64,000 bases of DNA, from NCBI RefSeq assembly GCF_022846255.1, contig NZ_AP025682.1. The stretch is one strand, 5' to 3'. A program made the position numbers and the translations under genes. Within the stretch, counting starts at the first letter, position 1. Every line of letters starts with the position of its first letter. This stretch comes from Escherichia coli. GTDB lineage: Bacteria; Pseudomonadota; Gammaproteobacteria; Enterobacterales; Enterobacteriaceae. Of the stretch, positions 11,834 to 17,814 are shown piece by piece. The notes beneath the pieces are model-generated. The model was not told the origin of the DNA. It did no database searches and saw nothing but the letters and a program-made list of their open reading frames with translations.

Positions 11834-13024
11834 TTAACGTTTCCGTCCTGGAAATACAAATAGTGCAATAACGGGAGATATTACCATCAGAACAAAAACA
11901 TAGGTAAATCCAAGTGTAAATCCGCCTGTTAGATCGACCGACCAGCCAATTAACTGACTGTTTATCGTTGCCAAAATAAATGTACAAACCCAGAAGGTGG
12001 ACATTGAATAAGTAACAGTTTGAGTATTCGCATTTTTTTGTTCTTCTTTTGGAATGGAGAAGATGAATGCAAACCAGGTGGCAAAAATAGAACCCGTCAA
12101 AAACGAACAAACCAATATAACGATATCATTAGTGGCAAATAACATTGCAAAGGTTGTAATAGCCATAAAGATACTGGAAATAAATAGCCATGATTTATAA
12201 TTATACCCACGGTTTTTAAAGTACGGCCCCATCAATGCACCAAGTAAAATCCCCACCTGATTGACTGTGCCACTCAAGTGAGCACAGGAGTCAGGGGGAA
12301 GATTAGCATATTTTGCATAGTACAGAGGCAGAAATGTGAACATAAAAATCATCATGATCATTGCCCCAGCATACTGAATAATCATTCCCCAGACAATACG
12401 ATTAAACAATACATCCTTTAATACAGATATTCGCTGTTCATAACTTATAGATATATGGCTATTCTGTTGTTGCTCTTCATCCGTGAAACATATTATCCAG
12501 ACAACCCCCAATATTAACGTAATTATTCCATAGATAGCTAACAGATTACGCCACCCGTTGAACAGCAGTGATAAATAACCTGCCAATGTCAATGCAATAA
12601 TTGTACCGATAATATTTGAAGTGCAATTTATACTATTTAATGTTGACGCCATTTTGTTATCGAAAAAGCGAGCAACCGTGGGCACCAGTGATACAAGGCA
12701 AATAGCCCCCCCCAGCCCACCAAGAAAACGAATAATCAATAACAAAGTAAAGTTATTAATAAATGGAATGAGCAAGGAGCTCCCAATCATTATACATCCA
12801 AGAAAATAGGATTTTCGGGTGCCGAGCCGGGAAACAAAGACTGCAGTACAAACAGCTCCCACAATTTTAGCCCATAAAATTACATTTGACATCAATGCAG
12901 CATGTGATACATCAACATTAAAATCACTCATAATTTGTGGCATTACGGCCCCTGTCGTAGCCCAGGCGGCACCAAATACCATATAAACGGTGTAAAGAAT
13001 GAATTCAATGACCCATTTTTTCAT
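11834..13024 (-). CDS. MFS transporter (12-TM)
   Basis: 396-aa hydrophobic protein; low GC; start overlaps the stop of the upstream peptidase gene by 4 bp (operon). Confidence 0.75.
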   Translation of the reverse strand: MKKWVIEFILYTVYMVFGAAWATTGAVMPQIMSDFNVDVSHAALMSNVILWAKIVGAVCTAVFVSRLGTRKSYFLGCIMIGSSLLIPFINNFTLLLIIRFLGGLGGAICLVSLVPTVARFFDNKMASTLNSINCTSNIIGTIIALTLAGYLSLLFNGWRNLLAIYGIITLILGVVWIICFTDEEQQQNSHISISYEQRISVLKDVLFNRIVWGMIIQYAGAMIMMIFMFTFLPLYYAKYANLPPDSCAHLSGTVNQVGILLGALMGPYFKNRGYNYKSWLFISSIFMAITTFAMLFATNDIVILVCSFLTGSIFATWFAFIFSIPKEEQKNANTQTVTYSMSTFWVCTFILATINSQLIGWSVDLTGGFTLGFTYVFVLMVISPVIALFVFPGRKR

Positions 13025-14274
13025 TTTTGTACCTCAGGGACACTTAGCTCAACCATTTCCAGCAGCATTTCACTGGCAAGACGCAGGGATTCCACAGGCA
13101 AAAACTCTCTGGTTGAGTGAAAATTGTGCGCCCCTGTAAATATATTAATAGTAGGCAGCCCTTTTGGGGTGATGACGCTACCATCATAACCACCGCGCAT
13201 AATCAGTGGTTTTGGTGTAATGCCAAGGTTACGCATTGCCTGTCTAACGTTATCTAAGATTGCAGGTGTTTTATCAAGCGCTGGTTTGACATTTTCATAT
13301 ATATCGGTTAACACTAATGTTATTCTTTCACTCTTCCAGCGCTGATTAATACTCTTAACAATGTTCTCGAGTACGGCTTTACGTTGTTTATATCCTGTTA
13401 ACTCAAAGTCCCGAATAGCAATATCAAGCGTGGCGCTGGCTGTATCACCATGGAGATTATGGACCCAATAATATCCTTCCCGTTTTTCAGTATGCTCAGG
13501 CCTTTCTTTTTCAGGTAATGCGGCGATAATTTCCGTTGCTATACACAACGCATTAACAAGCTTACCTTTAGCACTCATTGGATGTGCTGTAACACCACGA
13601 ACTGTAATTCGTGCACTACCTGCATACCAGTTTTCAACAACATATTCTCCAATCTCACAACAGTCGAGACAGATACCAAAATCAGAATTCAGTTCACCAA
13701 CATCAAGCGCTTTTGCCCCTCTGATACCGGTCTCCTCATCAGGCAAAAGAACAAGACGAATATCACCATGAGAAAAGGAGGGTGTATTAATCATATATTT
13801 GAGAGCTTCAACACCTGCTGCAATGGCAGCTTTGTCGTCAGCCCCCAGCAAGCTGGTGCCATCAGTTACAATAATATCCTGACCGATATAGTTGAGTAGT
13901 TCTGGATTATCCTGTGGGGATAGTTTTTCCACACTCCCTGCAAACGGTATAGCACCTCCGTTATACTTTTTCACTCGGAAAGCATGTGTATCTGTACTGT
14001 GGTCCGGAGCTGTATCAAGGTGTGCAAAGAATACGATAGAAGGTGCATCAGGAATATTAGCGGGTAAATGAATTGTGGCAATAGCATTTTCTTTTATGCT
14101 TGTTTGTACCTCTGGAACATCAGAAAATTGACTTACAACATATTCTGCCAGTTTATATTGATTTTTACAGCTTGGAAGCTCCTTGCTACCATCAACCGAT
14201 GTCGTATTTATTTTTGTGTAATATAAAAAAGTCTCAATTATTTTCTCTAAGTCAATGCGTTTTTTCATGATCAT
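13021..14274 (-). CDS. M20-family metallopeptidase, peptidase T (tripeptide aminopeptidase)-like
   Basis: 417 aa; PepT-like motifs FFAHLDTAPD, TLLGADDKAAIAAG, HGDIRLVLLPDEETG, RGGYDGS; alternative start at MKKRIDLEK 6 bp downstream. Confidence 0.85.
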   Translation of the reverse strand: MIMKKRIDLEKIIETFLYYTKINTTSVDGSKELPSCKNQYKLAEYVVSQFSDVPEVQTSIKENAIATIHLPANIPDAPSIVFFAHLDTAPDHSTDTHAFRVKKYNGGAIPFAGSVEKLSPQDNPELLNYIGQDIIVTDGTSLLGADDKAAIAAGVEALKYMINTPSFSHGDIRLVLLPDEETGIRGAKALDVGELNSDFGICLDCCEIGEYVVENWYAGSARITVRGVTAHPMSAKGKLVNALCIATEIIAALPEKERPEHTEKREGYYWVHNLHGDTASATLDIAIRDFELTGYKQRKAVLENIVKSINQRWKSERITLVLTDIYENVKPALDKTPAILDNVRQAMRNLGITPKPLIMRGGYDGSVITPKGLPTINIFTGAHNFHSTREFLPVESLRLASEMLLEMVELSVPEVQK

Positions 14275-16643: not shown

Positions 16644-17814
16644 GAAGGGAAACTCCTGTAGTGAAGGGGATGCTCTGATAAATCCGTTCAAATGCTTGTG
16701 TAAGATTGCTTCTCGGCGTGGCTATGTTCACACGGAAAAAACCAAGTCCTTCATCGCCAAAATCTGATCCCCAGCTCATCTCAACACCTGCGAGCGAGAC
16801 AAACCAATGGCGTAGTTGCTCTTCGCTGATGTTCATTGCCCGGTAGTCGATCCACAACATGTAAGTTCCGCCACCAGAGGCGACAAACCAGTCTGGAAAA
16901 TGAGCTTGGCAGAATGATTGAACCCAGCTCCTGTTTTCGACCAAATAATCTTTTAATGCTGCTAACCAAGAATCGCCATGGCGGTAAGCACAGAGAAATG
17001 CAGGAACAGAGAAATAACCAGGATTATGGATACCTGCTGCAATAAGAGCTAATTTAAACTGTTCACGATATTTATCGTTAGCAATAACAATATTTGCGAT
17101 TTCAAGTCCGGCCATATTAAAAGTTTTTGCTGGAGATGTACAAATAAACGAGTTTTGTGCAACGTATGAGCTTATAGAAGAAATTGTTTGATGTTGTTTT
17201 TGGGTGAAGTTGAAGTCTGCATGAACATCATCAGAAATAATAAAAATATTATATTTTTCTGCTAATGAAGCTATTTTCCTTAGATTGTCTTCTGACCAGA
17301 TTGTTCCTGTTGGATTATGCGGCGATATTAGAATGAAACAACAAGCCATTTTAAACTTATCTTCGAGATCCGCAAAGTCTATTTCATAGTGGTGGTCACG
17401 ATAAAGTAACGCACTTTCCAGCAATACTCGATGGTTGACTTCAACTGCATGACTAATAGGATGATAGGCTGGTGTCAGGCTGACAATAGCATCTCCCGGT
17501 TGGGTAAAGTTCTGGATAAATAATGAGACGGCCTGTACTACCCGTGGGCAAAAAACAATGTGTTCAGGGTTGACCTTCCACGAGTAATGGCGTTGATACC
17601 ACTGTGCTGCCACTTGCTGCCAGTCATCACTTAATAATGTATAACCGTAGATACCTTTCTGATTTGCGACAGATAATTCAGAAACTATAAAATCAGCTAC
17701 AGGAATATCCATATCAGCTACAGACAGGGGAATGATGTCACGCCCCTTGTTATTATATTTAGCGCTATAGGTTCCGTCGCGTGAAATAACTTTATCAAAA
17801 TTATAAACTTTCAT
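16636..17814 (-). CDS. PLP-dependent aminotransferase class I/II, MalY/PatB-type C-S lyase (cystathionine beta-lyase-like)
   Basis: About 392 aa from MKVYNFDKVISRDGTYSAKY (ORF open to 17928); SRDGTYS-type N-terminus and fold-type I layout typical of MalY/PatB. Confidence 0.75.
   Translation of the reverse strand: MKVYNFDKVISRDGTYSAKYNNKGRDIIPLSVADMDIPVADFIVSELSVANQKGIYGYTLLSDDWQQVAAQWYQRHYSWKVNPEHIVFCPRVVQAVSLFIQNFTQPGDAIVSLTPAYHPISHAVEVNHRVLLESALLYRDHHYEIDFADLEDKFKMACCFILISPHNPTGTIWSEDNLRKIASLAEKYNIFIISDDVHADFNFTQKQHQTISSISSYVAQNSFICTSPAKTFNMAGLEIANIVIANDKYREQFKLALIAAGIHNPGYFSVPAFLCAYRHGDSWLAALKDYLVENRSWVQSFCQAHFPDWFVASGGGTYMLWIDYRAMNISEEQLRHWFVSLAGVEMSWGSDFGDEGLGFFRVNIATPRSNLTQAFERIYQSIPFTTGVSLHE

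Follow-up and report, generated by a model that had tools for sequence, protein, structure and literature searches.

Gene Content of the Region and Protein Families

This work concerns positions 11,834 to 17,814 of a 64,000-nucleotide stretch of Escherichia coli DNA (contig NZ_AP025682.1 of RefSeq assembly GCF_022846255.1; hereafter the window), where four genes lie on the minus strand as two overlapping pairs. An initial reading made from the letters, without database searches (hereafter the sequence-only reading), had taken them together for a candidate cluster devoted to the use of a sulfur-containing peptide or cysteine S-conjugate. The open reading frame (ORF) list of the window confirmed the position and strand of all four genes. 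Cassette 1 comprises a paralogue of pepT, of the M20B tripeptidase family (13021-14268 by the RefSeq start, the raw ORF reaching 14274), followed by a major facilitator superfamily (MFS) transporter gene (11834-13024), delineated from the ORF list, profile search and homologous loci; the pepT stop and the MFS start overlap by 4 bp, in a common ATGA. Cassette 2 comprises the gene of a 392-aa pyridoxal 5'-phosphate (PLP)-dependent beta-lyase of the PatB/MalY family, hereafter patB (16636-17814, raw ORF to 17928, PLP lysine K230), followed by the gene of a 483-aa NhaC-family transporter (15192-16643 by the RefSeq start, raw ORF to 16691), with an overlap of 8 bp between the patB stop and the nhaC start. 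The arrangement into two operon-like pairs on one strand, as first described, was thus found again. The region lies within the pheV island, which occupies the whole left half of the window at tRNA-Phe (29022-29097), with an integrase at 27562-28824. Its GC content, which had been called very low, is indeed low (0.417; 0.38-0.45 per gene, and 0.31-0.45 at third codon positions), but only moderately so when compared with the 0.513 of the core part of the window.

Families were assigned by NCBIfam profile search, scores being judged against curated cut-offs. PatB exceeded the cut-off of TIGR04350 (370.5 bits, cut-off 340) and NhaC that of TIGR00931 (TC 2.A.35; 593 bits, cut-off 370), the latter protein also matching the ArcD model at 286 bits. 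The PepT paralogue lay above both PepT cut-offs (NF009920, 456 bits versus 293; TIGR01882, 319 bits versus 286). The MFS protein scored far under the cut-off of the ACS/galactonate model TIGR00893 (83.8 bits versus 395) and is therefore not an ACS member; only general MFS membership holds (PF07690). The four family assignments made from sequence alone are therefore sound, at the general level in the case of the MFS protein. The PLP lysine and the lyase signature that the first of these families calls for are both present in PatB: across 13 aligned sequences of PatB relatives, K230, within TSPAKTFN, does not vary, nor do N167, D195 and R361. The solved structures closest to PatB are C-S lyases, with end-to-end alignment to 4DGT and 6QP3, and 1D2F is also among the matches. 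An "nhaC" described in biofilms of avian pathogenic E. coli (PMC9762606) was considered as the same gene and rejected, since its product begins MREKPSFYVAL, which makes it a different gene.

Two Separable Cassettes Brought Together in E. coli

Co-occurrence was counted across 5426 complete E. coli genomes. The patB-nhaC segment was present at 99% identity or more in 378 of them (7%), including UTI89, ST131 and CE10, and 41 of its copies were plasmid-borne. The pepT-MFS pair was much rarer (24 genomes), with nine 99.8% copies located beside patB-nhaC and 15 copies of an 87% variant, mostly on 62-kb plasmids that lack patB-nhaC. Each pair moves alone, on plasmids and islands. The four-gene block was found in nine genomes, which probably stem from one event because all are 99.8% identical. 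Outside E. coli, about 85 patB loci of other species were free of PepT and MFS relatives at distances up to 8 kb, and neither patB nor nhaC was found near pepT-MFS in four loci from Kluyvera, Salmonella, Vibrio and Photobacterium. These counts do not support a single pathway unit of four genes; what is shared widely beyond this strain is the patB-nhaC pair.

The 917-bp gap between the pairs is itself composite. It contains two opposed remnants of an IS3-family orfA, identified by blastx against the IS3 proteins of the window (14479..14632, minus strand, on the side of cassette 1; 14705..14839, plus strand), and homology to genomes that possess only patB-nhaC begins at about 14666, between these two remnants. 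A 3' fragment of psiE follows on the other strand to the four genes (14984..15117, plus strand), annotated as a RefSeq pseudogene and colinear with Citrobacter freundii from 14982 onward. A GC-rich hairpin of 8 pairs, 7 of them G-C, stands directly after nhaC (15125..15148, minus strand) and is terminator-like, with a weak T tail. A remnant of an IS3-family orfB, detected by the same blastx comparison, adjoins the MFS gene (11630..11761, minus strand). The left boundary of the mosaic is an ISEc16-like IS3-family element with orfA and orfB (10351..11501, minus strand; from the ORFs and the RefSeq annotation of a 99.8% identical locus), and its right boundary in this window is another IS3-family element (18296..19509, minus strand; from the ORFs and RefSeq annotation), which is missing at the same spot in nine otherwise identical genomes. 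Our preferred reading is that the region consists of two independent two-gene cassettes joined by IS3-family activity within the pheV island.

Cassette 1 may be read on its own. Its peptidase aligns end to end with Salmonella PepT (1FNO), the metal-binding His, Asp, Glu, Asp and His being kept when the alignment is read by eye. The pepT-MFS pair, overlap included, is conserved as a unit of its own in Kluyvera, Salmonella and Vibrio, with a distant form in Photobacterium, and the MFS protein belongs to a narrow family that is invariably paired with an M20 peptidase. In comparison with housekeeping PepT (Salmonella 1FNO, E. coli 1VIX), the cassette-1 peptidase is alike in full-length alignment, metal ligands and model scores, but as a paralogue it has diverged, and its translation is in all cases coupled to that of its dedicated MFS partner in Kluyvera, Salmonella and Vibrio. 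Alignment of five regions upstream of pepT revealed no conserved block, including FNR or other promoter elements. A CRP core occurs there in the Vibrio copy only, the enterobacterial copies having none; in that Vibrio sp. locus, a perfect core TGTGATCAATATCACA lies about 50 nt before the start codon (approximately 5700-5775 of the locus). Cassette 1 is best read as a separate putative importer and tripeptidase pair for a small peptide, of narrow distribution.

A Citrobacter-Type Donor for patB-nhaC

Window positions 14982-18020 are colinear with the psiE/nhaC-patB/malG region of C. freundii at 91.2% identity, and the proteins of the two loci are 97.1% (NhaC) and 93.9% (PatB) identical. The gene order in the C. 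freundii record is lysC-pgi-yjbEFGH-psiE, nhaC-patB, malGFE-malK-lamB-malM. As psiE stands beside nhaC there, and as the two loci are colinear, the psiE fragment in E. coli is a scar of the donor locus. At the other end, the Citrobacter-derived segment (17930..18020, minus strand) extends to the remains of the malG terminator. Judging from this colinearity, the patB-nhaC cassette, with its promoter and psiE scar (about 14982-18020, some 3 kb), is an excerpt of a Citrobacter-type chromosome, and the foreign origin suspected from base composition is thus upheld. In E. coli K-12, the corresponding psiE-malG slot is occupied by xylE, the gene of the xylose:H+ symporter. The C. freundii record, although filed as a 425-kb "plasmid," bears core chromosomal genes (lysC, pgi, psiE, the mal operons and ubiCA) and may be a chromosomal segment or a chromid.

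A CRP and XylR-Type Promoter Upstream of patB

The region upstream of patB carries a perfect CRP core, TGTGATAAACATCACA (17914..17929), centred about 107 nt before the patB ATG, a position kept in orthologous promoters. Only two perfect cores occur in the 64-kb window, one of them being this one. The other, TGTGAAGCAAATCACA, lies at 51147-51162. In 20 of 23 gammaproteobacterial loci examined, a CRP-like site with at most one mismatch was found 102-129 nt before the ATG, for a background of 0.035 per 350 nt. Directly downstream of the CRP core is a conserved 38-nt block with repeats spaced by 21 bp, which in the window corresponds to a predicted XylR-type operator (17872..17909, minus strand; two repeats, CATAAT...CAGAAT, 21 bp apart), recognized as a matrix match in the sequence. 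A candidate -10 hexamer, TATTAC, is placed 16 nt after this operator (17850..17855, minus strand) by spacing and by alignment with orthologous promoters. The XylR operator described in PMC3561964 is likewise a pair of direct repeats, each with AAT at its end, adjoining the -35 region.

This resemblance was quantified with a position matrix derived from the 38-nt block of patB promoters. Applied to the 8.5-kb xyl locus of K-12, it gave as its top two matches the promoters of xylF (29.9 bits) and xylA (17.8 bits), each facing its gene, and the score of this locus was reached by 0 of 300 shuffles. With a matrix built only from patB promoters embedded in xyl loci, the xylE promoter was the top match in the 6-kb psiE-malG locus, at 26.2 bits. 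A further matrix, from which the E. coli cassette was excluded (xyl-embedded patB promoters plus the two K-12 operators), had its best match in the 64-kb window precisely at 17872-17909, with 25.4 bits and a runner-up at 16.5 bits. That runner-up (29922-29959, minus strand) stands just upstream of an unannotated 235-aa ORF (29203-29910) by tRNA-Phe and is probably a chance match. The same promoter arrangement was also found at stand-alone pairs, in Klebsiella oxytoca, Klebsiella indica, Pluralibacter and three metagenomic Enterobacterales. The best reading of these data is that patB-nhaC is a mobile, predicted member of the XylR/CRP regulon. No relevant riboswitch or leader RNA was found upstream of either pair (Rfam, E up to 1), and no MetJ-box array within the window, so that the use of sulfur peptides or cysteine conjugates, as initially proposed, is not reflected in the control regions, where a CRP and XylR-type promoter was found instead.

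The patB-nhaC Pair in Other Bacteria

One genome per species was scanned with the PatB alignment, and neighbours were then sought by tblastn. An NhaC relative (53-87% identical) was encoded directly downstream of patB in nearly every locus with a PatB at least 41% identical, and in none of 22 loci with a more distant PatB. This pairing spans three phyla and was seen in Enterobacterales, about 15 Pasteurellaceae, 26 of 29 Firmicutes loci, and Tessaracoccus. Repeatedly, the pair stands among xylose genes, in the order xylR, patB nhaC xylA xylB in Proteus, xylBA, patB nhaC xylFGH xylR in Pasteurella and most Pasteurellaceae, and, following a ROK-type regulator, patB nhaC xylA xylB galM in Anaerococcus; in Zophobihabitans, it likewise lies within the xyl operon. 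In Proteus, Zophobihabitans, Necropsobacter and Anaerococcus, moreover, no transporter other than NhaC is encoded among the xyl genes within 8 kb.

A second context was provided by 27 clustered loci from Firmicutes and other non-gammaproteobacteria, mostly Paenibacillus, in which a YheO-like PAS-HTH regulator precedes patB (23 of 27) and RidA (TIGR00004, 172 bits) follows nhaC (21 of 27). One Paenibacillus locus (7278-11137 of that locus) and about 20 others display the full four-gene block, comprising a YheO-like regulator with PAS and HTH_22 domains, patB, nhaC and the RidA gene. In three Paenibacillus patB loci devoid of NhaC, no informative partner genes were found. RidA is a deaminase for the aminoacrylate released by beta-eliminating PLP enzymes, and its presence beside the pair would indirectly support aminoacrylate formation. 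Klebsiella indica displays yet another arrangement (8001-11732 of its locus), in which the place of nhaC is taken by genes for an M20D amidohydrolase (TIGR01891, 359 bits) and for a symporter of the glycoside-pentoside-hexuronide (GPH) family (TIGR00792, 395 bits), patB being driven by the same CRP and XylR-type promoter. This is a natural transporter swap. We found no publication treating patB-nhaC or its xylose link.

Proposed Function of patB-nhaC

Taken together, the XylR/CRP-type promoter and the place of the pair in xylose operons elsewhere make patB-nhaC point to a xylose-linked amino-acid substrate, and not to the use of sulfur peptides. We infer, with fair confidence, that cassette 2 is xylose-responsive via the XylR of its host and degrades an imported beta-substituted amino acid to aminoacrylate, then to pyruvate and ammonia. 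In mechanistic terms, patB-nhaC would be a self-contained catabolic module controlled by CRP and by the xylose activator of the host. The NhaC-family protein would import a beta-substituted L-amino acid, and the PatB/MalY-type PLP enzyme would strip its beta-substituent by alpha,beta-elimination, yielding aminoacrylate and, from it, pyruvate and ammonia. Given how the module is integrated with xylose operons and regulons, this substituent would most likely be D-xylose, the simplest substrate being O-beta-D-xylosyl-L-serine (Xyl-Ser), and the freed xylose would then be consumed by XylAB. The obligate pairing of NhaC with a PLP enzyme argues for a predicted role as a substrate carrier, as opposed to a plain Na+/H+ antiporter; another NhaC-family member, MetT, is indeed a predicted methionine transporter (PMC2940859).

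As a whole, this explanation, with two cassettes and with patB-nhaC as a XylR/CRP-controlled importer and beta-lyase for a xylose-bearing amino acid, has in our estimation a probability of about 0.55. Its chemical core is more speculative: that xylose itself departs in the elimination, O-xylosyl-L-serine being the simplest such substrate, is put forward as a tentative proposal, as is the idea that the NhaC-coupled PatB clade may constitute a new kind of enzyme, an O-xylosyl-serine (or xylosyl-amino-acid) beta-lyase working with an NhaC importer under XylR control. Xylose as the leaving group would explain why the pair heads xyl operons under two unrelated types of regulator, why several xyl clusters have NhaC as their sole transporter, why the pair replaces xylE in position, and why K. 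indica has exchanged NhaC for a pentoside-type carrier and an amidohydrolase.

Several observations weigh against this interpretation. By the names of the family models, PatB would be a C-S lyase and NhaC would be a Na+/H+ antiporter, and elimination of a glycosyloxy group by the PatB/MalY enzyme family is not documented in the literature that could be searched. The Paenibacillus loci, which form the largest group, have no xyl genes within 8 kb and a different regulator, and the substrate there need not contain xylose. The E. coli cassette is not beside xyl genes either, and no remnant of xylR, xylA or xylB was found at the locus. In addition, the XylR-type operator is AT-rich and is a prediction from sequence, while the position of CRP relative to the transcription start and the link of these proteins to xylose, or to any substrate, are likewise inferred.

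Competing explanations must be weighed against this background. In the sequence-only reading, all four genes belong to one pathway, with import of a sulfur-containing peptide or cysteine S-conjugate, trimming by the PepT paralogue and C-S cleavage by PatB. The four genes do share a strand, PatB does pass a C-S lyase model and, according to PMC7385124 and PMC11742315, a staphylococcal PatB works on a cysteine conjugate after a dipeptidase step. A patB joined to an M20-family hydrolase and an MFS-type transporter moreover exists in K. indica, so that the expected combination of lyase, hydrolase and transporter is real there; its hydrolase and transporter, however, are of the M20D and GPH subfamilies, unlike those of cassette 1. 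In E. coli, each pair occurs without the other (378 genomes with patB-nhaC, 24 with pepT-MFS and nine with the block, among 5426, the nine being 99.8% identical), they are kept apart by IS debris, a psiE scar and a hairpin, they were not found together in the roughly 85 patB and four pepT-MFS loci of other taxa, and no sulfur-regulon signal, whether riboswitch or MetJ boxes, accompanies them. The four-gene interpretation is thus partly supported in its components, and distinctly unlikely as a pathway. A more economical variant would retain sulfur chemistry for patB-nhaC only, as an ordinary module for uptake and beta-cleavage of cystathionine, cystine or S-alkyl-cysteine, the xylose link being historical hitch-hiking. 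The family model and the nearest structures, which are cystathionine or cysteine-conjugate beta-lyases, fit this view, as do the prediction for MetT (PMC2940859), a RidA that would suit any aminoacrylate-forming lyase, and the Paenibacillus loci without xyl genes. Hitch-hiking would nevertheless have to be preserved in many settings: the pair is grouped with xyl genes under two unrelated regulators, the AraC-type XylR and a ROK protein, it takes the xylE position, it retains CRP and XylR-type operators even when displaced, and its K. indica counterpart has a pentoside-type transporter as partner. We consider this variant unlikely, while it is the best placed of the alternatives.

Two further explanations remain. 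PatB could be chiefly a regulator damping XylR, with an ionic or unrelated role for NhaC. MalY binds and inhibits the activator MalT, and malY sits in the malXY sugar operon; patB is similarly a MalY/PatB family member in a sugar operon, at the front of XylR-controlled operons, and 1D2F is among its structural matches. Against this stand the invariance of the catalytic residues, a tight translational coupling to the transporter kept across three phyla, RidA and M20D partners indicating real substrate turnover, and the presence of the pair with ROK-type XylR or YheO-like regulators as well. We rate this as the least likely of all the explanations considered. Alternatively, the NhaC-family protein could be a cation symporter of free xylose or of a xyloside, with PatB acting on an unrelated metabolite. 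Its status as the only transporter within 8 kb in the xyl clusters of the four genera named above would then be accounted for, and so would the occupation of the xylE slot in Citrobacter. This leaves unexplained why the carrier is almost always paired, through overlapping genes, with a PLP enzyme requiring an alpha-amino acid, and equally why RidA is a partner; many Pasteurellaceae, furthermore, have XylFGH in the same operon. We regard a xylose carrier of this kind as very unlikely.

Comparison With Known Systems

The pair shares features with several characterized systems. Like the other MalY/PatB lyases (E. coli MalY, Bacillus subtilis PatB 6QP3, Staphylococcus hominis PatB and Treponema denticola cystalysin), PatB has fold-type I, the PLP lysine in S/A-K-T-F-N, and the Asn, Asp and Arg residues, and like malY in malXY, patB shares its operon with a transporter gene, in the setting of a sugar regulon. 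It differs from them in belonging to a distinct clade, at least 41% identical internally and almost always followed by nhaC, which distant relatives are not, and in being under predicted XylR/CRP control, not sulfur or methionine control.

With the XylR regulon (xylAB, xylFGHR and xylE), the resemblance is in the promoter, with CRP upstream of two 21-bp-spaced repeats adjoining the -35 region. The consensus of PMC3561964 agrees with the patB operator, and the donor locus is the xylE slot. By contrast, the products of patB-nhaC match no known type of sugar transporter or pentose enzyme, the pair is accessory and mobile in E. coli (7% of complete genomes), and its regulation is predicted. The tdcABCDEFG operon, with the dehydratase TdcB, the transporter TdcC and the RidA protein TdcF, is alike in combining an importer, an aminoacrylate-forming PLP enzyme and a CRP-dependent promoter. 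The RidA likeness belongs to the Paenibacillus version of the pair, the E. coli cassette having no RidA of its own, and the enzyme subfamily, the transporter family and the regulator are all different.

The low-GC island y3555-y3550 of Yersinia pestis is horizontally acquired and reported to respond to hyperosmotic stress (PMC7221256). There, the gene of a class-I PLP enzyme and an NhaC-type gene share 8 bp, exactly like patB and nhaC, and a PAS-HTH regulator and a demonstrated RidA follow (PMC7221256). The reported stimulus is hyperosmotic stress and not xylose, and the island is analogous to patB-nhaC rather than orthologous. Orthology of Y3555 to PatB was considered and rejected, as Y3555 is an AspB-like aminotransferase with 22% identity.

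Possible Significance

Degradation of proteoglycans leaves Xyl-Ser as the stub of their linkage, and it has been reported in human urine. Should the proposal hold, host-associated bacteria, including Pasteurellaceae, Proteus, Anaerococcus and E. coli of the extraintestinal pathogenic (ExPEC) type such as UTI89 and ST131, would obtain xylose, pyruvate and ammonia from the Xyl-Ser that proteoglycan breakdown leaves behind, a possible route to xylose that animals provide only as Xyl-O-Ser. Many xylose operons of animal commensals would then be proteoglycan-linkage salvage operons, and glycosyl-amino acids would be suggested as the long-sought natural substrates of the MalY-type enzymes of sugar operons. 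Among well-studied pathogens, Pasteurella, Aggregatibacter, Histophilus and Proteus carry the pair in their xylose operons. Its predicted plug-in membership of the XylR/CRP regulon yields a testable regulatory prediction and a short list of candidate substrates, and would correct the annotations "Na+/H+ antiporter" and "methionine biosynthesis" propagated for these genes. Our searches returned no useful literature on bacterial xylosyl-serine catabolism, nor on candidate Haemophilus influenzae locus tags for the pair.

Other Features of the Island

The remainder of the island carries further accessory genes. According to the annotation of an identical RefSeq locus, positions 3622-7786 of the window encode a GRP-family sugar transporter, an L-fuculose-phosphate aldolase-like protein, mtnA and mtnK, a set that we take to resemble the methylthioribose/5-deoxyribose "DHAP (dihydroxyacetone phosphate) shunt" salvage cluster of ExPEC. 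An additional OmpC-like porin gene lies at 8985-10097, followed at 10093-10279 by a GcvB-like match that is below threshold (28 bits versus 42). A strong Rfam match to the Hfq-binding small RNA isrC (19355-19477, minus strand; 135 bits versus a gathering score of 39) falls at the 5' end of the right-hand IS3-family element (18296-19509). More cargo is found at 20050-22036, with a CynX-type MFS transporter and a TetR-family regulator, and at 22610-27163, where a GntR regulator, a galactonate-type MFS transporter, a short-chain dehydrogenase/reductase (SDR) family dehydrogenase and a ManD-like dehydratase form a set that looks like a sugar-acid catabolic module.

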